Shown here piece after piece: positions 551 to 56,198 of a DNA stretch of 64,000 nt (positions within the stretch are counted from its first letter, which is position 1; every line of letters starts with the position of its first letter). Made by a program: the position numbers and the translations under genes. The stretch is from Candidatus Nealsonbacteria bacterium (GTDB taxonomy: Bacteria; Patescibacteriota; Minisyncoccia; Minisyncoccales; UBA6532). Where the stretch lies: assembly GCA_016186485.1 (NCBI GenBank), contig JACPLN010000005.1, positions 105,256-169,255 of the forward strand. The letters run 5' to 3'. Below the pieces are notes generated by a model. That model had not been told where the DNA came from. It searched no databases and saw only the letters and a list, made by a program, of their open reading frames with translations.

Positions 551-2557
551 ATGTTATTTTCATACAACTGGCTAAAAGAATATATATCAGGAAAGCTGCC
601 CCAGCCAAAAAAGCTGGCAGAGATTTTAACTATGCATAGTTTTGAGGTGACAGAACTCAAAAGAATTTCAGGGGACCGGGTTTTTAACATAGATATTTTG
701 CCAAACCGTCCTGATTGTCTTTCTTGCATTGGCCTCGCCAGAGAAATATCAGCCTTATTGGGCAGAAAATTAGGCGAGACCCGTGCCCCAAAAACAGAAA
801 AATTAACCGTTGGAAAAGGGAGTTTGGATCCAGTAAAGATAAAAATAATAAATCATACGCTGGTACCGAGATATTCAGCAATTCTGCTAGAAGGAATTGA
901 GATAAAAGATTCTCCAAGATGGCTGAGATCAAAATTGGAAAAAGTCGGGGTTCGTTCGGTAAACAATATAGTTGATATAACCAATTTTGTGATGCTTGAA
1001 ACGGGACAGCCTCTTCACGCTTTTGATTATGATAAAATAAAGGGGGCGAAGATAACTCTGAGAATGGCTAGAGAAAGAGAATTTTTAATAACGCTTGACG
1101 GGATAAGGAGGCCTTTGCGAGAAGGGGTTTTGGTTATTGAAGACAAAGAAAGATTAATTGATTTGGCAGGCGTTATGGGGGGGAGATCAAGCGAAATTGA
1201 TTCAAAGACAAAGAACGTTTTTTTGCAGGCAGGAAATTTTGAACGCCAAAACATTGCCAGGACGGTGAAAAAAATGGGTTTTGGCACGCAAGCCTCCAAT
1301 ATTTACAGCCAAGGCGTTGATCCCGCCATGACGGCGGCCGGGCTGGAAAGAGCCCATTTCCTTATTAAGGATTTGGCAGGAGGAAAAATAGTTCAGCTGG
1401 TTGATATTTATCCCAAAAAGGTTTTGCCAAAAAGAATACGGTTAGACGAGGGGCGCATTGAAAATTTGCTTGGGGTAAAAATTCCGCAAAAAAATGCGGT
1501 TTCAATCCTGAAAAATTTAGGTTTTAAACAAGAGAAGCCGCTGGTTTTAGTTCCTGCTTTTAGGCAAGACATAAATCTTGAGGAAGATTTAGTTGAGGAA
1601 GTCGGGCGAATTTATGGATACCAAAATATTCCCGCAGCGCTTCCGGTTGCCGCGCTTTCCTCGCCAAAGAGGAACCTCGATATTTTTTGGCGGGATTTTG
1701 TAAAAGCCGTCTTAAAGGAATCGGGTTTTGCCGAAGTCTACAATTATTCTTTCATTCCTGAAAAGGAGGCAAAAATCTTTGGAAAATCCATTGAACTGGA
1801 GAATCCAATCAGCCAGGATTACAAATACTTGAGGCCCAGCCTCCTCCCCGGCCTTATTTCAAATATCAGCCAAAACAAGAAATATTTTACAGATATTAAA
1901 ATATTTGAATTGGGGAAAGTTTTTAAGAAGCAAAATGGTTTTGAAGAAAAAAACATGCTTTCCGGCCTGATTTTAGGAGAAGCATTTTACGAATTAAAGG
2001 GAATAGTTGACTTGCTGCTGTCAAAATTGGGAATAAGCGGCGTTTGGTACGATTCTTACCAGCAAACCCCTCAAGAAAGCAAAATAGAAATTTGGCATAA
2101 GGAGAAATCCGCAGAAATAAAGGTAGACGGAGAGGAAATCGGATTTTTGGGAGAAATATCGCCATCTCTATTAAAGGAATTTAAAATAGAAGGAAAAGTA
2201 ACTGCCCTTGATATTGATTTTGAAAAACTAAGCAAGCTTTCTTCTGAGGAGCACGAATACGAGCCAATTTCAAGGTTCCCTTCGGCAATAAGGGATTTGG
2301 CGGTTTTGGTGCCCCCAGAAACAAAGGTTGCCGACGTTTTGAACGCAATTGAGACTGCCGGCGGGAAATTAGTAAGAGACGTAGATTTATTTGACATTTA
2401 CGAAGGAGAAGAAGTGGGAGAGGGCCAAAAGAATTTCGCTTTCCACATTATTTACCAATCGGAAGACCATACTTTAAATTCGGCGGAAGTTGAAGCGGTC
2501 CACAATAAAATAATTCAAGCAATAGAAAAAAACATACAATGGCAAGTAAGAAAATAA
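551..2557 (+). CDS. pheT: Phenylalanine--tRNA ligase beta subunit, short form (668 aa) lacking the OB-fold tRNA-binding insert
   Basis: Canonical MLFSYNWLKEY start. The sequence runs straight into the DILPNRPDCLS B3/4 region, and the C-terminal FDX-ACB-like end is RFPSAIRDLAV. Adjacent to pheS. Confidence 0.9.
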   Translation: MLFSYNWLKEYISGKLPQPKKLAEILTMHSFEVTELKRISGDRVFNIDILPNRPDCLSCIGLAREISALLGRKLGETRAPKTEKLTVGKGSLDPVKIKIINHTLVPRYSAILLEGIEIKDSPRWLRSKLEKVGVRSVNNIVDITNFVMLETGQPLHAFDYDKIKGAKITLRMAREREFLITLDGIRRPLREGVLVIEDKERLIDLAGVMGGRSSEIDSKTKNVFLQAGNFERQNIARTVKKMGFGTQASNIYSQGVDPAMTAAGLERAHFLIKDLAGGKIVQLVDIYPKKVLPKRIRLDEGRIENLLGVKIPQKNAVSILKNLGFKQEKPLVLVPAFRQDINLEEDLVEEVGRIYGYQNIPAALPVAALSSPKRNLDIFWRDFVKAVLKESGFAEVYNYSFIPEKEAKIFGKSIELENPISQDYKYLRPSLLPGLISNISQNKKYFTDIKIFELGKVFKKQNGFEEKNMLSGLILGEAFYELKGIVDLLLSKLGISGVWYDSYQQTPQESKIEIWHKEKSAEIKVDGEEIGFLGEISPSLLKEFKIEGKVTALDIDFEKLSKLSSEEHEYEPISRFPSAIRDLAVLVPPETKVADVLNAIETAGGKLVRDVDLFDIYEGEEVGEGQKNFAFHIIYQSEDHTLNSAEVEAVHNKIIQAIEKNIQWQVRK

Positions 2558-4482
2558 AACCTAAAAAAATAAAAAGCGAAGGCAGTTACGAAGCCAAGGA
2601 TATTTATGTATTGCAGGGTTTGGAGCCCGTAAGAAAAAGGCCCGGCATGTATATTGGCACTACGGGTCTTGAGGGTTTGCATCATTTGATTTGGGAGTGC
2701 GTTGACAATAGTATTGACGAGGCAATGGCTGGGTACGCAAAGAACGTTGAGATTGCGCTGACGGGCGGCAACAAGGTTACGGTTGCTGACGACGGCCGCG
2801 GCATTCCGGTTGAAAAACATCCCCAGACGAAAAAATCAGCCCTGGAAACCGTAATGACCACTCTGCATGCCGGAGCAAAGTTCGGAGGAAAGTCTTACCA
2901 GGTAGCCGGAGGCCTTCATGGGGTTGGGGTTTCGGTGGTGTGCGCTTTATCAACATGGATGAGGGTAGAGGTTTGCAGGGGAGGCTTTAGGTATTACCAG
3001 GAATATTCCAAAGGAAAAGTCAGGGCGGCCGTTAAGAAAATGGGAAATTGCCGCCAAACAGGGACCAGCGTTTCTTTTGAGCCGGACCCCGAAGTCTTCA
3101 AGGAAATACGCTTTGATTTAAAGAAGATATTAAACCATCTTCGCCAGCAGGCTTATCTTACCAAGGGAGTAAGGATATCGGTGAAGGACAATAGGGCTAG
3201 CGAAAAATCCGAATACACATTTTATTTTGAAGGCGGCCTGAAGTCTTATGTCAAATATCTTGTTAGAGGAACCCCTTTAAGGCAGCAAAACATTTTTTAT
3301 ACCCAAGGAACGTATGAAGATATTTTAGTTGAGACAGCCTTTCAATACACTCAAGACCAGGAATATTTTGAAGAAAGTTTTGCCAACAATATCAATACCG
3401 GAGAAGGAGGAACGCATTTGACCGGATTGAGAACCGCCCTTACCAGAACCTTTAACGATTATGCAAGGCGGAATAACTACCTAAAAGAAAAAGACGAGAA
3501 TCTGTCCGGGGAGGATATAAGGGAGGGATTTACCGGCGTTGTTTCGGTTAAATTAAAAGAGCCCCAGTTTGAGGGGCAGACAAAAGCCAGGCTGGGGAAC
3601 CCCGAAGCTAGGCTGGCGGTAGAAAAAGTCGCTTCAGAAGGGTTAGCAGATTTTCTTGAAAGAAATCCCCAAGACGCAAGAGCTGTTATTGAAAACTGCA
3701 TTTTGGCGCAAAAGGCAAGGAAAGCCGCGAAGTCAGCCAGAGAAACCGTTTTGAGAAAAGGGATTCTTGAGGGTTTGGCCCTGCCGGGGAAACTGGCTGA
3801 TTGCGTTTCAAGAAACCCCGAGGAGTCCGAATTATACATTGTTGAGGGGGAGAGCGCCGGAGGGTCTTCAAGGCAGGCGAGAGACAGGCATTTTCAGGCA
3901 ATATTGCCATTGAAAGGCAAAATTTTGAATGTTGAAAGAGCAAGGCTGGATAAGATTTTGTCTTCAAAAGAAATAAGGTCTTTAATCATTGCTTTGGGCA
4001 CGGCCGTTGCCGACGACTTTAACATAGAAAAAGCTAGATATTACCGTACGGTTATAATGTGCGACGCGGACTCCGACGGAAACCATATCAGAACCCTTCT
4101 TTTAACTTTATTTTACAGATATTTTAAGCCTTTAATAGAGAAGGGGTATCTTTATATCGCCCAGCCTCCTCTTTACAAGATCCAGGCAGGGAAGAGAATA
4201 GAGTACGCCTATACGGAAACGGACAAAGAAGAAATTTTGGCAGATATTAAAAAACAAAAATTAAACGCCAATATTCAAAGATATAAAGGTTTGGGCGAAA
4301 TGAACCCCGAAGAGCTTTGGGAAACGACAATGAATCCAAAAAACAGGGTTCTTTTGAAAGTGACAATTGAAGACGGAAGGGAGGCAGACAAAATATTTGA
4401 CGTTTTAATGGGTGAAGAGGTTCTTCCGAGGAAAAAGTTTATCCAAGCTCAAGCAAAAAAGGTGCAAAATCTTGACATTTAA
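2539..4482 (+). CDS. gyrB: DNA gyrase subunit B
   Basis: GHKL ATPase motifs (LEPVRKRPGMYIGTT, HHLIWECVDNSIDEA), Toprim EGESAGGS, and QPPLYK. Overlaps the pheT end by 19 nt. Confidence 0.95.
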   Translation: MASKKIKPKKIKSEGSYEAKDIYVLQGLEPVRKRPGMYIGTTGLEGLHHLIWECVDNSIDEAMAGYAKNVEIALTGGNKVTVADDGRGIPVEKHPQTKKSALETVMTTLHAGAKFGGKSYQVAGGLHGVGVSVVCALSTWMRVEVCRGGFRYYQEYSKGKVRAAVKKMGNCRQTGTSVSFEPDPEVFKEIRFDLKKILNHLRQQAYLTKGVRISVKDNRASEKSEYTFYFEGGLKSYVKYLVRGTPLRQQNIFYTQGTYEDILVETAFQYTQDQEYFEESFANNINTGEGGTHLTGLRTALTRTFNDYARRNNYLKEKDENLSGEDIREGFTGVVSVKLKEPQFEGQTKARLGNPEARLAVEKVASEGLADFLERNPQDARAVIENCILAQKARKAAKSARETVLRKGILEGLALPGKLADCVSRNPEESELYIVEGESAGGSSRQARDRHFQAILPLKGKILNVERARLDKILSSKEIRSLIIALGTAVADDFNIEKARYYRTVIMCDADSDGNHIRTLLLTLFYRYFKPLIEKGYLYIAQPPLYKIQAGKRIEYAYTETDKEEILADIKKQKLNANIQRYKGLGEMNPEELWETTMNPKNRVLLKVTIEDGREADKIFDVLMGEEVLPRKKFIQAQAKKVQNLDI

Positions 4483-12150: not shown

Positions 12151-13623
12151 ATGATAAACTTTCTGCCGGTTATAGGTTTGGAGGTGCACGCTGAGCTGAA
12201 AACAAAAAGCAAGATGTTTTGTTCTTGCCATAATGATCCCTTGGAAAGGCACCCCAATACAAATATTTGCCCGATTTGCATGGGGCACCCGGGCACTCTG
12301 CCGGTTATTAATAAAGAAGCGGTGAGAAAAGTGATTAAAACGGGGCTGGCTTTAAATTGCCAAATTTCGGAACATTCTAAATTCGACAGAAAAAATTACT
12401 TTTATCCCGACCTCCCTAAAGGATATCAGATATCGCAGTATGACAAACCCCTGTGCCTGGGAGGTTTTTTAATTATTGATGGCAAGGAAATACGCATTAG
12501 GAGAATTCACCTTGAAGAAGACACTGGAAGGCTAATTCACCCTGAAGGGGCGGATTACAGCTTGGTTGATTTTAACAGAGCCGGAGTTCCTTTGATGGAA
12601 CTGGTGACCGAGCCCGATATTGATTCAGCAAAAGAAGCCAGAAGTTTCGCCCAAGAGCTCCAGCTTATTTTTAGATATCTTGGGGTTTCTGACGCTGATA
12701 TGGAAAAGGGAGAAATGAGGGTGGAGGCAAACGTGAGTTTGCTTCAACTTAAACCCAAAACCCAAAACCCAAAACCCAAAACTCTGGGTACTAAAGTAGA
12801 GGTTAAAAATCTGAACTCTTTCCGAGCAGTAGAGAAGGCAATAGAGTATGAGGTTATCAGGCAAAAAGGAATTCTTGGCAAGGGTAAGAAAGTCATTCAA
12901 GAGACTATGGGATGGGATGACGTTAGCGAAGTTACTTTCAGCCAGAGAATAAAAGAAGAAGCCCATGATTACAGGTATTTTCCCGAGCCCGATTTGCCGC
13001 CCTTGCGCATAACAAAAGAGGAGGTTTTGAGAATAAGGGCAGGCGTTCCCGAGCTTCCCCAAAACCGCAGAACAAGGCTTATTAAAGAATACAAATTAGA
13101 GCCAAAAGCGGCCGAGGTTTTCGTAACCAACAAAGACCTCGGTGAGTATTTTGAGAAGACGGTAAGCGAGTTTGATCCGCATCTTTCTAAAGAAAAACTC
13201 CAATCTTTAATAAAGCTGGCAACAAACTATATCGTTACAGACCTTCAGGGTTTGCTAAAGGGGGCTTTGGTGGCGGGCGAAGATTTTTTAATAACGCCGG
13301 AAAATTTCGCCGAGTTTATAAGTTTAATTTACGAAGGCAAAATTACGAGCAAAATTGCCAAGATTGTGCTGGAAGAAATGTTCAAGGCAGGAGCCGATCC
13401 CTCCCATATTATTGAAGAAAAAGGATTGGTTCAGATGACCGACGAGAAAGAAATCGAAGAAATAATAAAAGAGGTAATTTCTCAAAATCAAAAAGCGGTG
13501 GAAGATTACAAAAAAGGCAAAGAAAACGCCCTCCAGTTTTTATTAGGACAGGTAATGGCTAAAACTCAAGGCAAGGTCAATCCCGAGACCGCCCGCAAAC
13601 TTCTCTTGACAAAGCTAAAGTAA
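12151..13623 (+). CDS. gatB: Asp/Glu-tRNA amidotransferase subunit B
   Basis: GLEVHAELKT, CPICMGHPGTLP, GTKVEVKNLNSFR, and the C-terminal YqeY-like tail KGKENALQFLLGQVMAKTQGKVNP. Confidence 0.95.
   Translation: MINFLPVIGLEVHAELKTKSKMFCSCHNDPLERHPNTNICPICMGHPGTLPVINKEAVRKVIKTGLALNCQISEHSKFDRKNYFYPDLPKGYQISQYDKPLCLGGFLIIDGKEIRIRRIHLEEDTGRLIHPEGADYSLVDFNRAGVPLMELVTEPDIDSAKEARSFAQELQLIFRYLGVSDADMEKGEMRVEANVSLLQLKPKTQNPKPKTLGTKVEVKNLNSFRAVEKAIEYEVIRQKGILGKGKKVIQETMGWDDVSEVTFSQRIKEEAHDYRYFPEPDLPPLRITKEEVLRIRAGVPELPQNRRTRLIKEYKLEPKAAEVFVTNKDLGEYFEKTVSEFDPHLSKEKLQSLIKLATNYIVTDLQGLLKGALVAGEDFLITPENFAEFISLIYEGKITSKIAKIVLEEMFKAGADPSHIIEEKGLVQMTDEKEIEEIIKEVISQNQKAVEDYKKGKENALQFLLGQVMAKTQGKVNPETARKLLLTKLK
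12751..12785 (+). repeat. Heptanucleotide tandem array (AAACCCA x4 plus AAACTCT) inside gatB
   Basis: Read directly. It encodes LKPKTQNPKPKTL in a loop between the conserved ANVS and GTKVE blocks. Confidence 0.9.
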
Positions 13624-13656
13624 GTCGAACAGCCCCATAATTTTTTTAAAAAGTAC

Positions 13657-13685
13657 TTGACAGGGGTGTTAGCTATTGTATATAC
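13657..13685 (+). promoter_or_regulatory. Sigma70-like promoter for the toxin-antitoxin pair
   Basis: TTGACA (13657-13662), then 16-17 nt, then TATATA/ATATAC. ATG at 13695. Confidence 0.5.
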
Positions 13686-13694
13686 TTTAGATAT

Positions 13695-13973
13695 ATGGCG
13701 AAGACGATGATAAATATTAGGGCAGACCAGGATATAAAGAGCAAGGCACAGAGAGTTGCTCACGACCTTGGCATGCCTCTTTCTACGATTATTAATGCTT
13801 ATCTCAGACAGCTTATTCGCACCAAGGAGATTCACTTTTCTACTGAAGGAGAATTAAAGCCGGCAGTCAAAAAAAGACTGGATCGTATTCACGAAGAGGT
13901 CAGGGAAGGGAAGAATCTTTCCCCGGTATTTCATAATGCTAAGGCAATGGATTCTTATCTAGATTCTCTATAG
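13695..13973 (+). CDS. Type II antitoxin, RelB/DinJ family (ribbon-helix-helix)
   Basis: The N-terminus INIRADQDIKSKAQRVAHDLGMPLSTIINAYLRQL is DinJ-like. The toxin gene starts 3 nt downstream. Confidence 0.75.
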   Translation: MAKTMINIRADQDIKSKAQRVAHDLGMPLSTIINAYLRQLIRTKEIHFSTEGELKPAVKKRLDRIHEEVREGKNLSPVFHNAKAMDSYLDSL

Positions 13974-13975
13974 AA

Positions 13976-14236
13976 ATGAAGATACAGCTGCATAGAAATT
14001 TTGAGAAGAAATTTGTTAAACTTCCTCTCAAAATAAAGGAGAGGTTCAAAGAACGTAGAGGTCTCTTTCTAGAAGACGCTTTTAATCCGTTGCTTAATAA
14101 TCATCCTTTAAGCGGCGACCGTTTGGGGCAATGGAGTGTTAATATCACAGGCGACTGGCGCGCTATTTATGTGTTTAGAGACGAGAATACTATTGTTTTC
14201 ATTGATATAGACACGCACAGTAATTTATATAAATAA
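13976..14236 (+). CDS. Type II toxin, RelE/YafQ (ParE/RelE superfamily)
   Basis: NNHPLSGDRLGQWSVNITGDWRAIYVF....IDTHSNLY pattern. 86 aa, paired with the antitoxin. Confidence 0.75.
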   Translation: MKIQLHRNFEKKFVKLPLKIKERFKERRGLFLEDAFNPLLNNHPLSGDRLGQWSVNITGDWRAIYVFRDENTIVFIDIDTHSNLYK

Positions 14237-14240
14237 TAAT

Positions 14241-14351
14241 CAAGGCAAAGAAAACGCTTTGCAATTTCTTGTAGGCCAAGCAATGGCAAAATCTAGGGGC
14301 CGCGCCAACCCAGATAAAGTCAGGCAAACTCTATTGACAGAATTAAGATAG
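14241..14351 (+). pseudogene. Displaced relic of a gatB 3' end (36 codons plus stop)
   Basis: Translates to QGKENALQFLVGQAMAKSRGRANPDKVRQTLLTELR*, versus KGKENALQFLLGQVMAKTQGKVNPETARKLLLTKLK* at the live gatB end (22 of 36 identical by my count). No upstream coding continuation. Confidence 0.85.
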
Positions 14352-14362
14352 GGTGCTATAAT
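14334..14362 (+). promoter_or_regulatory. Perfect-consensus sigma70 promoter embedded in the gatB relic
   Basis: TTGACA (14334-14339), 17 nt, TATAAT (14357-14362). Confidence 0.75.
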
Positions 14363-14368
14363 TGGCTT

Positions 14369-14703
14369 AGCTCATAATGGCTGGACGATGAACACCGAGG
14401 GACGCTGGAGAACCTTAGCGTCTAGCAGGAGGGAAAGCTCCGGTCCCTTTGATGGAAGCACAGTCTTCTCTTGGGCCTAGATAGCAAGAGTTATCTTCTT
14501 GGGTGCTATGCAATAATGTCAGCCGGCTAAAAGGCTGGCTGGAAAGGGCGCAATACCCAACAATCACTAGCTTCTAGTGCAACTCTCGTAAGTTAAGTCT
14601 TACTTATGTTGCATACTAGCGAAGGCAAGAGGATGGCAGATGCGCTGTCTAGATATAATTAAAAGGGCCTAGTAGACTAAAAGTCCAACGGCCCCGTTTT
14701 TTT
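14369..14703 (+). ncRNA. Candidate structured non-coding RNA (~335 nt), family not identified
   Basis: Consensus promoter upstream. Terminator GGGCC (14665-14669) / GGCCC (14690-14694) followed by T7. No ORF above ~30 codons. Visibly higher GC than the flanks. Several hairpins: 14401-06/14417-22, 14499-504/14555-60, 14565-70/14574-79, 14578-83/14608-13 with inner 14588-92/14599-603. Confidence 0.6.
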
Positions 14704-14732: not shown

Positions 14733-15437
14733 ATGGCCTCCTCAAAAATTTTCATTATAAGCCTGGGCGGATCTATTGTGGCCCCAAAGAGCGGGGAGGT
14801 TAATATTTCTTTCCTCAAAAAATTCAAAAAGCTTGTTTTAGGGTTTGTAAACAAAGGACACAGTTTTGTTATTGTGGTTGGAGGAGGGAAATTAGCCAGG
14901 GTTTACCAGGAAGAAATTTCCAACATCTTAAAACCCTCTTTTGAAGATAAAGATTGGTTGGGTATTTTAACTACCAGACTTAATGCTCAGTTTGTAAAGA
15001 TAATTTTTGGCGATAAAGCCCATTCTTTTATTGTCACCAATCCAACTTTACCGATAAAAACCGTAAAGCCAATCATTATATCAGCCGGCTGGAAGCCCGG
15101 CTGGTCCACGGATTATATCGCCGTGCTTTTAGCTAAAAAGTTCGGGGCAAAAGAGATAATTAATGCCAGCAATATTCCATTTGTTTATTCTGAAGACCCA
15201 AAATTAGCAAAGGTCAACGGCAGGAAACCGAAAGCTATCCCGAAGCTTTTTTGGAAAGAATACAGAAAACTAATAGGGGGAAAATGGATTCCGGGATTGG
15301 GAGTCCCGATTGATCCCATAGCCGCCAAAGAAGCTCAAAAACAGGGAATAAAAGCAATTATTGTTCTTGGAACCGATTTAAAGAACCTGAAAAATTTGCT
15401 ATCGGGTAAAAATTTCCGCGGCACTACCATTGCTTGA
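14733..15437 (+). CDS. pyrH: Amino-acid-kinase-fold UMP kinase, archaeal-type (putative)
   Basis: FIISLGGSIVAP and VIVVGGGKLAR motifs, 234 aa. Confidence 0.65.
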   Translation: MASSKIFIISLGGSIVAPKSGEVNISFLKKFKKLVLGFVNKGHSFVIVVGGGKLARVYQEEISNILKPSFEDKDWLGILTTRLNAQFVKIIFGDKAHSFIVTNPTLPIKTVKPIIISAGWKPGWSTDYIAVLLAKKFGAKEIINASNIPFVYSEDPKLAKVNGRKPKAIPKLFWKEYRKLIGGKWIPGLGVPIDPIAAKEAQKQGIKAIIVLGTDLKNLKNLLSGKNFRGTTIA

Positions 15438-20610: not shown

Positions 20611-20631
20611 ATATTCGGTTCGTCAAAATTG

Positions 20632-21078
20632 ATGGGATCAGAAAGAAGAGAAATAGCAGCAAAGGAAACTTCATGGCATCGCAGGTTAAGGAAAAAGCAT
20701 GTTACAAAACCGATTTTTTTTATTCTGCTAATAGTAACGATATTTTGGTTTGCCGGAATCCCTATTTATGCACGCACATCAGGGGCGGGTCTAATCCATC
20801 TTACCAGCAAAGAAACGAGGGTTAGTGGCATAGGAACAATGGAAGATATCAAAAATGCTAGCGTTAGGTTTGATGGTTCTCAATTAATCTTTACTGTTGA
20901 TGGACAAATAAGGAGCATCAAACACATAGGCTCCGGGGCCTTTCAGGAAGAGTTTGCCGTAGGGAATACTGTTGTTGTTATCAACGGAATTACAGAGCGG
21001 GGCGAAGTCTTTTTTGTCAAAATATCTTATTACCAAGGCCAAACCAAATCTTCTTTCCAAACATCTCTACCCGAATAA
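20632..21078 (+). CDS. Hypothetical single-pass membrane protein
   Basis: One TM helix (PIFFILLIVTIFWFAGIPIY). The leader is identical to that of the next gene. Confidence 0.5.
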   Translation: MGSERREIAAKETSWHRRLRKKHVTKPIFFILLIVTIFWFAGIPIYARTSGAGLIHLTSKETRVSGIGTMEDIKNASVRFDGSQLIFTVDGQIRSIKHIGSGAFQEEFAVGNTVVVINGITERGEVFFVKISYYQGQTKSSFQTSLPE

Positions 21079-21139: not shown

Positions 21140-21160
21140 ATATTCGGTTCGTCAAAATTG

Positions 21161-21754
21161 ATGGAATCAAGAAAAATACTGACCGTGAAAAAGGGTTCGT
21201 GGCACTACCTGCTAGCGAAAGTACTTGATGACCTCTGGGGTTCGGATATCACTCTCTCGCGCGATGGCTGCAGTTACAGAAGAGGATTAGGCATAGGTGT
21301 TTTCTTTACAGCCATGCCGGTCTTTATGGCGATAGGCATTTTCGCAATTGTCTTTCCCCCAAAAGAGCCATTCTTATCAGCATTTTCCGTCTTAACCCCG
21401 ATATATGGGATAGCAACCCTAATCGAACTAATTGTTCTGTGGGAGAACATGAGCGAGAACAAAAAGCGTCCAGTACAGAGAGTTCTTGGTCCTATTGCAA
21501 AAGTTCTTGATAGGGCATTCGCAAGATGGGATCGCGCGCGTCTTGTCGTAGACAGGACAATAGATGAGCTCTTATCACCGCTAGGGACCCTCATAGACTA
21601 TCTGTGGGAAAGAATTCACGCGCGGCGAATGGCGAGCAGACAGCAAAAGCCCAAAGCCATAAAAGCAGAAAGACAAAAACAGCCAAACCTATTCTTTCTT
21701 TGGATTAAGGCCAAGAAAGAAAGATACTGCCCGCTAATAGAATTCGTGCCATAA
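21161..21754 (+). CDS. Hypothetical membrane protein
   Basis: Two or three TM helices. The N-terminus (K.GSWH) resembles the preceding gene. GC is higher than the surroundings. Confidence 0.5.
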   Translation: MESRKILTVKKGSWHYLLAKVLDDLWGSDITLSRDGCSYRRGLGIGVFFTAMPVFMAIGIFAIVFPPKEPFLSAFSVLTPIYGIATLIELIVLWENMSENKKRPVQRVLGPIAKVLDRAFARWDRARLVVDRTIDELLSPLGTLIDYLWERIHARRMASRQQKPKAIKAERQKQPNLFFLWIKAKKERYCPLIEFVP

Positions 21755-36784: not shown

Positions 36785-36801
36785 TCGCTTCATGCTAGCA
36801 T
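36773..36801 (+). promoter_or_regulatory. Sigma70-like promoter of paralog A; overlaps the last codons and stop of murB
   Basis: TTGACA (36773-36778), 17 nt, TAGCAT (36796-36801). Homologous to the promoter at 38040. Confidence 0.6.
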
Positions 36802-36817
36802 CTTACTAGGTGAAAAA

Positions 36818-37489
36818 TTGAACCTTAACAAGTACGTATATCCTAAGGGCTACAAAGTAAAGAACATTACGGAGCAGACCAACATCTTGCGTCAGTTATT
36901 CCCCGGAATAGGCTATGCTGACGAGAGAATAGTCAAAGGACCTTTGCCGGAGGGAGCCGAAGGATGGTTCGCCATCCCGAGGTGGGATAGTATCGCGCAT
37001 ACCTACAACGAGGCGGTGGATAAGGTGCTGAAAATGCTCAAGCAACAGTGCAAAGGCAGGTTCTATAACTACCGCGAGCACCATATAACAGATTGGTTGC
37101 AACAAACCAATAAGGCAATGAAGATGTTCTATAAGATATGGCAAGAGCAGGATGGATACGACATTCTCGTAGTTCCGGCGCAGTTCGGTCTCCGTCATCG
37201 GGGCCTTTCCATTAGGCAGGCTCGGAATGCCATGAATGTCATGGAGTTTGGTTTCGGCGCTTTCGCCGTCGGTATCATGCTATTGATCCATCCCGAGCGG
37301 GAAGTCCAGTGGGAACAGCTCCACGTTCTATGCGCTGGTGACGACTTCAGTATCATCTATGTCGAGTCCTTGCGCGAGCCGTTTTTCGACTTCTACAACG
37401 GCGAGGTAAAGTTCGACAACTGCTTGGAACATAGCTACGACGATCGCTACGGTTCCGCGTCGGGATTTGTCTCGTCCTCCTCCGTATAA
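36818..37489 (+). CDS. Unassigned protein family, paralog A (223 aa, TTG start)
   Basis: TAGGTGA SD-like sequence then TTG. Shares blocks GAEGWFAIPRW, YNEAV, PAQFGLRHRG, HPEREVQWEQLH and C-terminal GSASGFVSSSSV with 38085.. and 55518.. Confidence 0.8.
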   Translation: MNLNKYVYPKGYKVKNITEQTNILRQLFPGIGYADERIVKGPLPEGAEGWFAIPRWDSIAHTYNEAVDKVLKMLKQQCKGRFYNYREHHITDWLQQTNKAMKMFYKIWQEQDGYDILVVPAQFGLRHRGLSIRQARNAMNVMEFGFGAFAVGIMLLIHPEREVQWEQLHVLCAGDDFSIIYVESLREPFFDFYNGEVKFDNCLEHSYDDRYGSASGFVSSSSV

Positions 37490-38039: not shown

Positions 38040-38068
38040 TTGACAAAGTAATCGCCTTATTCTAATAT
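38040..38068 (+). promoter_or_regulatory. Sigma70-like promoter of paralog B
   Basis: TTGACA (38040-38045), 17 nt, TAATAT (38063-38068). The leader TAGTAGGTGAAAAATTGAACCTT is nearly identical to copy A. Confidence 0.65.
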
Positions 38069-38084
38069 CTTAGTAGGTGAAAAA

Positions 38085-38804
38085 TTGAACCTTGAAAATC
38101 TGATGAGTCCGTTCTTCGCTAACGAAGAAGCGTCGTCCAACTACGGCTATCCGCAAGGGTATGCCGTGAAGCCGATTTCGGAACAGCTCGTGGAGCTTTC
38201 CAAGCACTTCAAAAGCCTCAATAACAGTTCGGTGCTCGCGTGTTCTAATGAGCTTCCGGCTCTGCCCGCTGGCGCGGAAGGCTGGTTCGCCGTTCCGCGA
38301 TGGGAGAAAGTCGCGTCTTCGTACAACGAGGCTGTTAAGAAGGTCCTCTACCTGATCGGCAAGACCCGCAACTTCTACAACTGCCGTAAATACGCACTCG
38401 GCCCGAAGTACCTGCGGCTCTCTGAGCGAACGGCTGTCGCGCTCCAGATGATCTGCGAAAAGCAGAAGGGCGACTTTCTGCTGATCCCGGCGCAGTTCGG
38501 TCTGACCCATCGCGGTCGGTCCGTGCGAAGGGTGCGCGTGGTATACGCTCCCCACGAGTTCGGCCTCGGGTCGTTCATCGCGGGGTGCATGATCCTGTCA
38601 CATCCCGAGCGCCTCGTTCAGTGGGAGCAGTTGCACATTGACTGCCCCGGTGACGAGTATAGTCCTGGCGCCGATGGTCGCTTCGACAGCGCGCCGATCT
38701 TTTTCTTCGTCGACAGCGAGGTCAAGTTCAACGCCTTCTGGGTCAGCCTCGCCCGCGAGCACGATGGCTCCGCGTCGGGATTTGTCTCGTCCTCCTCCGT
38801 ATAA
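38085..38804 (+). CDS. Unassigned protein family, paralog B (239 aa, TTG start), GC-rich core
   Basis: Same conserved blocks and identical C-terminal GSASGFVSSSSV. The interior is strongly diverged from A and C. Confidence 0.8.
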   Translation: MNLENLMSPFFANEEASSNYGYPQGYAVKPISEQLVELSKHFKSLNNSSVLACSNELPALPAGAEGWFAVPRWEKVASSYNEAVKKVLYLIGKTRNFYNCRKYALGPKYLRLSERTAVALQMICEKQKGDFLLIPAQFGLTHRGRSVRRVRVVYAPHEFGLGSFIAGCMILSHPERLVQWEQLHIDCPGDEYSPGADGRFDSAPIFFFVDSEVKFNAFWVSLAREHDGSASGFVSSSSV

Positions 38805-54314: not shown

Positions 54315-55468
54315 TGTCACAAGATATTAAAAACCTGGATAAGGCGGCAAAAAGGATTATAGAGGGCATTAAAAACAAAGAAAGGTTTATACTTTTCGGC
54401 GACGCAGACCCTGACGGCGTGTCTTCAGTTGTTATTTTAAAAGAAACCCTTGAAGCTTTTGGCGCAAAAAGAATAATTGCCTATTTCCCAGACAGGGAGC
54501 AAGACGGCTACGGCCTTAATCAAAAAGCCCTAAGCTACCTTAAAAATAAGGCGCCCGGCATCTTAATAACCCTTGATTGCGGAATAGGGAATTTTAAAGA
54601 AGTAGAAAGAGCAAAGAAAACCGGCTTTTATGTAATAATAGTTGACCATCACAGGCTTACTACGGTTGTTGCAAAACCAAATATTTTGGTGGATCCATTT
54701 CAAGAGGGAGATAACTCAACCTTTAAAGACTTTGCCGCTGGCGGCCTGTCCTTTTTGCTTTCAAAATTAATTTTGAATAAAGCCCATCCTTTATTAAAAG
54801 GGGAACAGGATAGATTTTTAGAATTGGCTGCGCTTGCCACTGTCGCTGACCAGATGAAATTGGAAGACGAAAACGAAAGAATAGTTAGAGAGGGAATTAT
54901 CGCTTTGAGTTACACGAAAAGAAAAGGGCTTATTTTGCTGATTAAGAGAGTTGGTTTTGGAGGGGGCAAAAGCGATGTTATAGAAAAGCTGCTGCCGCCC
55001 TTAAGCGCAGCCGGACCAAAAGGCAACCTTAACGAGGCATACCTGCTTTTAATTGAAAATAATCTAAATAAGGCTAAGAAGATGGTTAATGTTTTGGTTA
55101 AAAAGGCATTAGCCAAAAAAGATAGACAGCAGAGAATATATGCAGAAGTCCTAAATAATATTGAAGATAAAAATGATTCAATAATCTTTGAGGGGAAAAA
55201 TTCTTGGCCCCTGGTTTTACTTGGGGCCGTGGCTTCAAAGTTATGCCAAAAACATAATAAACCAGTTTTTCTTTATAGGCGCGGCAGGAAAGAAAGCCCT
55301 GGTTCTGTAAGAGCTCCAAAGGGCGTAGACAGCGTAAAAGCAATGACTTCTTGCGAAAAACTGCTGGTTACATATGGCGGCCATCCGCCTGCCTCCGGTT
55401 TTAGGGTAAAAAACGAGAACTTGGATAAATTTAAAAGCTGTTTAATTAAGTATTTTGAAGAAAGATAG
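54314..55468 (+). CDS. DHH-family phosphoesterase, RecJ-like (short, 384 aa)
   Basis: GDADPDGVSS, DCGIGN, and VDHHR motifs. Confidence 0.7.
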   Translation: MSQDIKNLDKAAKRIIEGIKNKERFILFGDADPDGVSSVVILKETLEAFGAKRIIAYFPDREQDGYGLNQKALSYLKNKAPGILITLDCGIGNFKEVERAKKTGFYVIIVDHHRLTTVVAKPNILVDPFQEGDNSTFKDFAAGGLSFLLSKLILNKAHPLLKGEQDRFLELAALATVADQMKLEDENERIVREGIIALSYTKRKGLILLIKRVGFGGGKSDVIEKLLPPLSAAGPKGNLNEAYLLLIENNLNKAKKMVNVLVKKALAKKDRQQRIYAEVLNNIEDKNDSIIFEGKNSWPLVLLGAVASKLCQKHNKPVFLYRRGRKESPGSVRAPKGVDSVKAMTSCEKLLVTYGGHPPASGFRVKNENLDKFKSCLIKYFEER

Positions 55469-55473
55469 GTGCC

Positions 55474-55502
55474 TTGACAACAACCAATATGTTTGCTATA
55501 AG
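55474..55502 (+). promoter_or_regulatory. Sigma70-like promoter of paralog C
   Basis: TTGACA (55474-55479), 17 nt, TATAAG (55497-55502). Confidence 0.6.
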
Positions 55503-55517
55503 ATATGCAGAGTAAAA

Positions 55518-56198
55518 TTGCTCTTCAAAAAAAGGTACGTATATCCTAAGGGCTACAAAGTAAGGAGTATTACGGAGCAGACCAACATCTTGCGTCAGTT
55601 ATTCCCCGGAATAGGCTACGCTGATGAGAGAATAGTCAAAGGACCTTTGCCGGAGGGAGCCGAAGGATGGTTCGCCATTCCGAGGTGGGAGAATATCGCG
55701 TCCTCGTACAATGAGGCGGTGGAAAAGATGCTGGAGCTGATTAGGCAACAGCGTAAGGGCAGGTTCTGCAACTATCGCGCGGGCCGTCTCGGACCATATT
55801 ACCTGAAACAAACCGAGAAGGCAACGATGATGTTCCATAAGATAGAACAAGAGCAGAAGGGATACGACATTCTTGTAGTTCCGGCGCAGTTCGGTCTCCG
55901 TCACAGGAATCTTTTCGTAGAGCAGGCTCGCGCAGTCATGAACGCTGGCGAGTTCGGTTTCGGCGCCTTCGCTGTCGGCATCATGCTATTGATCCATCCC
56001 GAGCGGGAAGTCCAGTGGGAACAGCTCCACGTCCAATGCGCTGGCGACGACTTTAGTAATTTAATCCATGGCGAGTGGTCGCGCGCGCCGCTCTTCGACT
56101 TCAACGACGACGAGATCAAGTTCGGCGCCGGCTGGTTCCTCAGTACCTACGCGCACTACGGTTCCGCGTCGGGGTTTGTCTCGCCCTCCTCCGTATAA
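55518..56198 (+). CDS. Unassigned protein family, paralog C (about 226 aa from TTG 55518)
   Basis: Same family as 36818.. and 38085... The ORF-track start 55455 lies upstream of the promoter and inside the recJ-like gene, so TTG 55518 is preferred. Confidence 0.75.
   Translation: MLFKKRYVYPKGYKVRSITEQTNILRQLFPGIGYADERIVKGPLPEGAEGWFAIPRWENIASSYNEAVEKMLELIRQQRKGRFCNYRAGRLGPYYLKQTEKATMMFHKIEQEQKGYDILVVPAQFGLRHRNLFVEQARAVMNAGEFGFGAFAVGIMLLIHPEREVQWEQLHVQCAGDDFSNLIHGEWSRAPLFDFNDDEIKFGAGWFLSTYAHYGSASGFVSPSSV

Follow-up and report, generated by a model that had tools for sequence, protein, structure and literature searches.

A toxin–antitoxin cassette between two gatB 3' ends in a Candidatus Nealsonbacteria genome, with probable arrival by recombination anchored in gatB

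Integrase-encoding islands and prophages insert at the 3' ends of tRNA, tmRNA and some protein-coding genes, and supply a replacement end to the gene that they enter. Homology-facilitated illegitimate recombination (HFIR), which reportedly operates in naturally transformable bacteria, captures foreign DNA through homology on one side only, and Campbell-type 'ends-in' insertion-duplication, known from laboratory gene disruption, duplicates the target homology around an insert that can loop out again. In Photorhabdus, toxin–antitoxin (TA) 'islets' have been described as small TA-only insertions between core genes that lack an integrase or transposase; spread through homologous recombination at the core genes that flank the insertions was proposed for them, and one TA operon has a 24-bp res-like palindrome duplicated on both sides (PMC13617665). 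The integration of bare TA cassettes was called unclear in this 2026 survey (PMC13617665). The locus considered here lies in a window of 64,000 nucleotides (contig JACPLN010000005.1 of a Candidatus Nealsonbacteria bacterium), in which a RelB/DinJ–RelE-type cassette stands directly behind gatB and is itself followed by a second gatB 3' end. We consider it probable that this compact cassette arrived by recombination anchored in gatB, bringing a foreign gatB end with it and stranding the resident one.

An initial annotation, made from the letters of the window, had placed the gatB stop at 13623, a TA pair behind it and a second gatB tail at 14241..14351, and all three are found there (Table 1). 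The layout comprises, in order, the intact gene, the cassette, 4-5 bases of filler, a 16-base block, a diverged gatB end and a promoter. The second tail, hereafter the relic, translates as QGKENALQFLVGQAMAKSRGRANPDKVRQTLLTELR* and shares 22 of 36 residues and 71 of 108 bases with the end of the active gene (tail 1), as had been estimated (22 of 36 residues, about two-thirds of the bases). The annotation had also tied the insertion to the significance of the relic against GatB profiles. Taken alone, the 36 residues match positions 114-148 of the 148 in Pfam GatB_Yqey with 40.8 bits (E 2.7e-10, cutoff 27), which is significant for the end of the domain, and the frame is kept and closes with a stop codon; the insertion model stands on this count, and the E-value rejects a chance similarity. 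A tblastn search of all open reading frames (ORFs) of the window against the window connected the gatB ORF to the relic (E 1.5e-9), which is the sole short local duplicate of the gene-fragment type in the 64 kb, and a local alignment of the two flanks across the cassette gave z = 12.2 against shuffles. The first relic codon is CAA (Q), at a position that holds K in most of 119 relatives and Q in none; because this codon is probably junction filler, the homology is taken to start at 14242.

An assembly chimera was considered and rejected, since Logan assemblies from separate runs, two of which span the whole structure, are identical to the window. Those that span gatB to beyond the downstream RNA stretch (L005/L009 and L006) come from different sequencing runs and are 100% identical to the window, and two others (L007, L008) cover the locus from the antitoxin 3' end onward, likewise with 100% identity.

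The two tails differ at 37 of 108 bases, with dN 0.30, dS 1.71 and dN/dS 0.17 (NG86), and the replacements are mostly conservative. Against a profile of 80 distinct GatB tails of relatives, from which the window was excluded, tail 1 scores 69.2 bits and the relic 61.6 bits. Three divergence histories were simulated, each conditioned on 34-40 base differences. If both copies had remained constrained, the simulated relics score 47.1±9.0 bits, 3.8% of them reach 61.6, and the mean of identical residues is 22.8, with a probability of 0.72 for 22 or more; if both had been neutral, the values are 27.3±10.5 bits, 0.07%, 14.2 residues and 0.0007. In the third history, a duplication with the gene copy constrained and the relic neutral, the score is 14.6±8.9 bits, the value of 61.6 is reached in 0 of 1500 simulations, and 16.4 residues are identical on average, with a probability of 0.009 for at least 22. 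Only the history in which both copies are constrained reproduces the 22 identities observed. In a decay series, the 7.6-bit loss corresponds to about 4 neutral substitutions, and to fewer than 10 at P<0.05. The relic score thus tolerates at most ~10 neutral substitutions, and therefore at least ~25 of the 37 differences predate the inactivation of the relic.

Pairwise comparison with three sampled relatives (L001, L002 and L003) gave 81, 77 and 71 identical bases of 108 for tail 1, and 77, 75 and 64 for the relic. The two tails, with 71 identical bases, are less alike than either is to two of the three, namely L001 and L002. Because dN/dS, the decay simulation and the pairwise identities with relatives agree, the tails are xenologous. 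As judged from their sequences, both are functional gatB ends, they stem from different lineages, and one has recently lost the connection to its gene; decay of a local duplicate does not account for the relic.

A direct repeat flanking an insert is nevertheless the arrangement expected if the cassette insertion had made a local target duplication of ~111-126 bases, the copies of which diverged in place while the relic decayed, and the tail differences by codon position (12, 8, 17) lie near the simulated mean (11.1, 10.8, 15.1). This explanation would have to accommodate the low scores and the scarcity of identical residues among the simulated relics of such a history, an open frame that has a probability of only 0.29 of remaining free of stop codons, the closer resemblance of each tail to L001 and L002, and a relic whose 111 bases are free of indels although synonymous divergence is saturated (dS 1.7). 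We regard it as very improbable.

The initial annotation had further made the insertion depend on relatives without the TA pair not holding both tails; the six such relatives (L001-L004, L108, L109) hold exactly one gatB tail each (6/6). The flanking housekeeping backbone is syntenic with the relatives. Immediately downstream of gatB, their sequences are not alignable to one another and differ in content, and the interval between gatB and miaA is different in every relative: it is empty in L108, consists of 390 non-coding bases in L109, and contains an unknown ORF in L001 and a kinase gene in L002. Variation of the region downstream of the anchor gene among relatives is found both here and at the DUF3175 gene of the sister cases described below. 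Because the downstream regions differ between relatives, homology is available on one side only.

When the 270 bases before each cassette promoter were compared with the 200 bases after each toxin stop, clear direct repeats with a gene-end layout were found in only three cases: the window (z 12.2), L104/L105 (z 13.3) and L038 (z 34). In L104/L105, from Candidatus Woykebacteria, a DUF3175 gene is followed by the cassette and then, directly after the toxin stop, by a relic of the DUF3175 end. A near-identical genome, L106/L107, has the same flanking genes and no cassette, and so offers the empty site. Between L104 and L106 there is 1 difference in the first 150 coding bases and there are 25 in the next 108 (21 changed codons, of which 17 are synonymous and 4 are not), with a sharp transition near L106 position 318. 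A change from near-identity to divergence inside the anchor gene, as a homologous breakpoint would leave relative to an empty site, is thus seen in this pair. Past the cassette, L104 rejoins L106 at position 388, with 97.6% identity over 1941 bases, and the native positions 388-452 occur twice in L104. The copy attached to the gene is foreign (62% identity to L106 over positions 408-444), whereas that after the toxin is native, with a few substitutions and a 1-base deletion. The protein body encoded by the L104 gene is 97% identical to that of L106. The terminus of L106, ...LRSLYSRT, is of the relic type, and the terminus in use in L104 reads ...LRNLFSRH. As far as sequences can tell, the comparison directly records the import of a cassette together with a replacement gene end, the left boundary being a homologous crossover inside the gene.

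Over its first 20 bases, the L104 relic matches the imported copy, not L106, at both diagnostic positions. An identity block at the left edge of the relic, 20 bases long in this case, recurs as in the window. The two exchange points in L104 lie apart (~318 and ~408 in L106 coordinates), and a simple Campbell event, a single crossover with a circle, is therefore rejected for this locus. The native L106 sequence after the stop (TTGAACAATTAT) resembles the cassette -35 region (TTGACAATTAT), and this likeness hints at microhomology at the original left junction. The duplicated native segment of L104 reaches the cassette -35 box, as a target duplication would originally have done, and this observation counts in favour of a local duplication.

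The second sister case, L038 (also Woykebacteria), shares with L104 the DUF3175 gene and the gene-to-cassette junction, with the TGA stop of the gene lying inside the cassette TTGACA in both; its closest relative, L102/L103, has an empty site. The L038 relic is longer (127 bases). Its codons 1-15 have 15 of 45 bases changed (6 synonymous and 5 non-synonymous changes, VSVPSS for MSMLNF), and the non-synonymous ones fall at positions invariant in the 60 family members inspected. Codons 16-25, within a 32-base perfect block, have 0 of 30 bases changed. In codons 26-37, 13 of 36 bases differ (9 synonymous and 2 non-synonymous changes), and the terminus NLFNRGI is like the KLFNQGI of L102. The L104 and L038 relics both look like hybrids, in which a short unselected 5' piece carried with the cassette is joined to a native 3' end. 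Such hybrids are what would arise from a donor that already had the tail-cassette-tail arrangement, through a crossover in the gene body and another within the relic. Since the two relics encode different family-typical termini, they represent two separate integrations and not one inherited event.

The Woykebacteria cassettes themselves are unevenly related. The promoter and the first ~60 antitoxin bases belong to an 82%-identical stretch that also spans the DUF3175 gene (L038 1581..2124 against L104 2810..3339), and 94% identity extends over a 35-base stretch comprising the last 30 toxin bases and 5 past the stop; the interiors have diverged beyond what blastn can align. These cassettes are mosaic, as though their core had been exchanged between conserved ends.

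The order of parts at the gatB locus is that of an integrase island, namely the 5' part of the gene, core, new 3' end, insert, core and old 3' end, with the displaced original end forming a direct repeat and an identical 16-base block at the left edge of both copies. The locus might accordingly be read as the remnant of an island that entered the gatB 3' end through an attP with a gatB-like terminus, the block being the att core and the rest having been deleted. However, neither an integrase nor a transposase nor a reverse transcriptase was found within ~-7.5 to +6.5 kb, where Pfam analysis of 10 large upstream ORFs and precomputed Pfam assignments of the downstream genes returned only housekeeping genes. 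This bears out the earlier remark that no integrase is present, and none was found around the sister loci. The element between the blocks measures only 728 bases (an insert of <0.75 kb) and goes no further than the toxin stop, the replacement gene end has diverged by 34%, and ~60 related cassettes at varied sites have nothing in common outside the promoter-to-stop unit. No cassette relative was found in viral contigs. The identical blocks of the three cases (16 bases in the window, 20 in L104 and 32 in L038) are parts of the host gene and differ between contexts, with no evident conserved att core, and the import in L104 begins on the left with a homologous crossover in the gene, ~70 bases upstream of the repeat instead of at the block. 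An island remnant is therefore improbable in our view. The suggestion that the locus behaves like islands integrating at gene 3' ends holds for the order of the parts; the likeness is only formal, as no integrase is needed and the left boundary of L104 is not an att site. The layout would mimic an integrase-type island, though no integrase is present, because recombination anchored in a gene imports the donor end and strands the resident end.

Other elements that generate repeats were weighed as well. Diversity-generating retroelements are common in genomes of the Candidate Phyla Radiation (CPR), and a ~110-base repeat of a gene 3' end shortly downstream of the gene could recall the template/variable repeat pair of such an element, or another programmed repeat system acting on gatB. 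A retroelement was rejected since the mismatches are not A-specific (of the 37, 12 lie at an A of the relic and 11 at an A of tail 1, as given by base composition). The region searched above holds no reverse transcriptase, gatB is a housekeeping gene, and a divergence of 34% is far above that of such pairs, so that the probability of this origin is negligible. A transposon or insertion sequence was dismissed on three counts, namely that no transposase is present, that no inverted repeat links the cassette ends, and that the repeat is 111 bases long and xenologous. An integron cassette was likewise set aside, as conservation stops at the toxin stop and neither an integrase nor a shared attC-like element was seen (no dedicated attC model was run).

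Polarity at the gatB locus was approached by phylogeny. No usable signal came from a neighbour-joining tree of 120 GatB bodies or from rank correlations of body and tail identities, the relatives being about equally distant. A full-length GatB search returned no relative closer than 75-78% identity, and because the nearest GatB is only this similar, phylogeny cannot resolve which tail is ancestral. We infer that the relic is the displaced resident terminus from parsimony, from its continuity with the downstream promoter and from the analogy with the sister cases. The initial annotation had regarded the relic as the ancestral end and tail 1 as having come with the insertion; the two-lineage tails, the working-looking relic and the empty site of the sister case speak for this view, and the polarity that it assumes is the more probable one at this locus.

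In the opposite polarity, tail 1 would be native and the cassette cleanly inserted, and a second event would have imported the RNA or leader region along with 111 bases of a relative's gatB tail. A promoter overlapping the gatB end of that relative would indeed drag the tail along, which would come to lie directly behind the toxin stop; L002, in which ~130 bases separate gatB from a kinase gene, and L108 both lack the stretch 14369..14703; the content of the gatB-miaA interval is variable among relatives; and the phylogeny and xenology tests are silent on which tail is foreign. Such a history, however, requires two independent and adjacent events, the second starting 4 bases after the toxin stop. 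The copy behind the toxin is native in both sister cases, where there is no RNA gene, and the identity block at the left edge of the relic, which recurs in L104, would be left unexplained. We judge this order of events to be unlikely.

In the favoured reading, an import anchored in gatB, the donor would be another lineage in which the cassette already stood directly behind gatB, and which hence carried that lineage's gatB 3' end with it. CPR bacteria are thought to be naturally competent, and entry would be by uptake of foreign DNA; no site-specific recombinase would be involved. On the left side, a homologous crossover would have taken place inside gatB, at or upstream of 13513, and on the right side the import would have been joined to the resident chromosome ~110 bases before the resident gatB stop. 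As an outcome, gatB would be completed by a foreign functional terminus (13513..13623) followed by the cassette, and the resident terminus, with its promoter for the RNA or pyrH leader, would be left as a recently inactivated relic (14241..14351). Tail 1 would thus have come along with the cassette, perhaps with some gatB sequence from upstream of it. As a variant of the same model, the relic could be the terminus of the genome in which the structure first formed, the unit having been passed on later by outer recombination. The first event at a given gene would occur by an illegitimate join of the HFIR kind, or from a repeat-flanked donor ('ends-in'). In later transfers, both repeats would serve as homology arms for RecA-type recombination into related genomes that have the gene, whatever lies downstream of it. 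For the window, we infer the identity of the native tail, the left crossover site and the type of join. The 16-base block (AAGGCAAAGAAAACGC), which covers the conserved KGKENA motif, is no more than suggestive of a crossover or of a carried segment. A run of this length at 66% identity has a chance of roughly 0.05 by our own estimate.

Several points weigh against this account. No near-identical empty-site genome is available for the window, so the breakpoint in gatB and the polarity are not directly observed, and phylogeny gave no signal as to the tail that belongs with the gatB body. A locus of the donor type, with the cassette behind gatB, was not found in the toxin and GatB searches; the closest toxin, at 79% identity, is located elsewhere. 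With only 66% identity and no shared run longer than 16 bases, the tails are a poor RecA substrate for a crossover within the tail, so that the model needs a crossover further upstream or a rare short-homology event. The block over KGKENA, the most conserved motif, may moreover reflect conservation and not a crossover. Lastly, the right end of the import lies 0-7 bases from the toxin stop in all three cases, for which random illegitimate joining alone is insufficient. Inspection by eye of the joins between toxin end and relic in the three cases gave no consistent microhomology.

Among known processes, HFIR and insertion-duplication integration are those that the locus resembles in operation. 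With HFIR it shares the one-sided capture through homology; in L104 the homologous breakpoint lies on the gene side and the non-homologous join on the other. By contrast with HFIR, where a deletion is usual, the join here falls upstream of the anchor end and leaves a duplication; in three cases the foreign end falls at the toxin stop; and the L104 relic begins as donor-type sequence, which is better explained by a repeat-flanked donor than by a blunt illegitimate join. Duplication of the target homology around an insert, with the capacity to loop out, is also the mark of Campbell-type integration, which differs from the present case in that here the process is natural, the insert is a selfish addiction module and the tails are homeologous (66-87% identity). 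From the Photorhabdus islets, the present loci differ in the duplicated coding 3' end of the neighbouring gene, in the xenologous nature of the copy in use and in their CPR hosts. The full-text literature searched, the coverage of which is incomplete, gave no account of this footprint, in which a TA cassette is flanked by a xenologous copy of the terminus of its neighbour gene and which here recurs within one cassette family; the Photorhabdus paper (PMC13617665) came closest.

If the reading is correct, the window and the two sister loci represent a readable footprint of one integrase-free route for bare TA cassettes. They would indicate that an essential translation gene such as gatB can bear a foreign 3' end as a by-product of selfish-element traffic, and would be an indirect sign that quite diverged lineages of Patescibacteria recombine with one another. 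Other genomes can be scanned for the signature, a small insert enclosed by a xenologous direct repeat of a gene end. More tentatively, the tail-cassette-tail layout could itself be a mode of mobility, in which the cassette carries its own homology arms, swaps gene ends and leaves hybrid relics; we hold this for possible and, on balance, doubtful. If true, it would amount to a general integrase-free spread of addiction modules among DNA-importing bacteria such as CPR, and to a hidden source of mosaic 3' ends in essential genes.

The genes of the cassette are those of a type II RelB/DinJ-RelE/YafQ module, a two-gene operon with the antitoxin first and a palindrome over the promoter as expected for autoregulation, and the genes show nothing unusual. 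Both ORFs are intact and adjacent. The pair had been called RelB/DinJ-RelE/YafQ-like from the outset, and the family models agree: the antitoxin matches Pfam RelB (PF04221, 32.8 bits, cutoff 22.4) and NCBIfam RelB_DinJ (TIGR02384, 48.5 bits, cutoff 45.65), and the toxin matches Pfam ParE_toxin (PF05016, 27.7 bits, cutoff 23) and NCBIfam RelE_StbE (TIGR02385, 31.7 bits, cutoff 27.9). With the YafQ-specific models, the toxin remains below the thresholds (Pfam YafQ_toxin PF15738, 29.2 bits, cutoff 30; TIGR00053, 29.3 bits, cutoff 87). It is thus assigned by profile to the RelE superfamily and not certified as YafQ. Promoter, antitoxin and toxin together make up ~580 bases.

Both cassette proteins are encoded at ~60 loci, with toxin identities of 50-79% and in many different contexts. 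Nearly all of these belong to CPR metagenomes or genomes, and in none of the ~60 (metagenomes, GTDB genomes) does the cassette adjoin gatB. Exact-protein look-ups of the window toxin and antitoxin returned the same strain only, with 100% identity, and the best match of the toxin in a search of 5.8 billion proteins reached 79%, at a different site. One locus, L083 (JAUYPG010000039.1), comes from a bin labelled Nanoarchaeota and hence from an archaeon by its binning; its toxin is 76% identical to that of the window, as would result either from transfer between CPR bacteria and DPANN archaea or from a binning error. An alignment of the cassette ends in ~47 distinct loci revealed that the conserved part runs from the -35 box (TTGACA, 17 bases, TATATAC palindrome) to the stop codon of the toxin. 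The promoter is conserved in most of these loci, and neither terminal repeats nor any shared sequence outside the promoter-to-stop unit was found across them. The ends of the window cassette are not linked by an inverted repeat.

Some cassette loci have repeats of other kinds. A fourth match between flanks, in L085, is a palindromic repeat element and different in kind: at L085 2715..4005, two related TA cassettes stand in tandem with 30-35-base palindromic repeat elements on both sides. Larger repeat-insert-repeat structures enclose the cassette and one extra gene in L021/L023 (about 2129..3931) and in L040 (about 650..1947). An upstream copy of a 139-aa gene has an internal deletion in L021, and in L040 a gene's promoter and its first ~21 codons occur twice and are fused to a different ORF. 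These loci were not counted as instances of the same layout, their repeats being a larger duplicated gene in L021/L023, a promoter with an N-terminus in L040, and palindromic elements in L085.

The features of the locus are collected in Table 1. The gatB product is 100% identical to the NCBI GatB of Candidatus Nealsonbacteria. Inside the gene, at window 12748..12782, is a short AAAACCC-type tandem repeat encoding KPKTQNPKPKT, and both Logan assemblies that reach into gatB (L005/L009 and L006) break off at window 12752, just short of the repeat. The perfect promoter that had been noted in the relic region was recovered; its -35 box lies in relic codons 32-33, and its -10 box starts 6 bases past the relic stop.

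Table 1. Features of the gatB–cassette–relic locus, in window coordinates.
Feature	Position	Strand	Evidence or remark
gatB, intact, 490 aa	12151..13623	+	Pfam GatB_N 385.5 bits, GatB_Yqey 155.1 bits
Tail 1, final 36 codons and stop of the active gatB	13513..13623	+	69.2 bits, profile of relatives' tails
16-base block AAGGCAAAGAAAACGC, left edge of the repeat	13514..13529	+	identical to 14242..14257
33-base spacer, gatB stop to cassette promoter	13624..13656	+	not conserved in other cassette loci
Cassette promoter (TTGACA, 18-base spacer, TATACT), overlapping the palindrome GTATATAC	13657..13686	+	11/12 consensus
RelB/DinJ-family antitoxin, 92 aa	13695..13973	+	family models
RelE/StbE-YafQ-type toxin (mRNA interferase family), 86 aa	13976..14236	+	family models
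gatB 3'-end relic, 36 codons and stop, no upstream gene body	14241..14351	+	Pfam GatB_Yqey
Sigma-70-type promoter, perfect	14334..14362	+	12/12 consensus, TG just upstream of the -10 box
GC-rich non-coding stretch ending in an intrinsic terminator	14369..14703	+	stem 14665..14695, T run 14697..14703
pyrH, archaeal-type	14733..15437	+	TIGR02076 158.5 bits

The non-coding stretch behind the relic extends over ~335 bases, has a GC content of 0.49-0.50 against ~0.39 in its flanks, and ends 30 bases upstream of pyrH. Its predicted fold has a minimum free energy of -117.6 kcal/mol (z = -3.4 against shuffles). No Rfam match was obtained at gathering thresholds, at E<=1 or at E<=10, and an nhmmer search against all fetched loci returned the same strain only. 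From its composition and fold, the stretch could be an undescribed small-RNA gene or a long attenuator leader of pyrH. Between gatB and miaA of L109 (3910..4300) there is a GC-rich non-coding stretch of similar size, which has a terminator and no Rfam match, and which nhmmer does not align to the RNA stretch of the window.

In the wider neighbourhood, the genes upstream of gatB encode NusG, L11, a dCMP deaminase, a thymidylate kinase, ThyX, a nucleoside deoxyribosyltransferase-like protein, a NUDIX protein and an M24 peptidase, and the locus is followed downstream by pyrH, an AsnC-like gene, miaA, murJ and lepA. Elsewhere in the window, two adjacent genes (20629..21078 and 21158..21754) have N-terminal regions that are ~54% alike over 39 residues; this looks like a tandem paralogue pair and not a relic. 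Three further paralogous genes (36785..37486, 38052..38801 and 55446..56195), which share 41-74% identity and have similar short downstream ORFs, are distributed over 20 kb.

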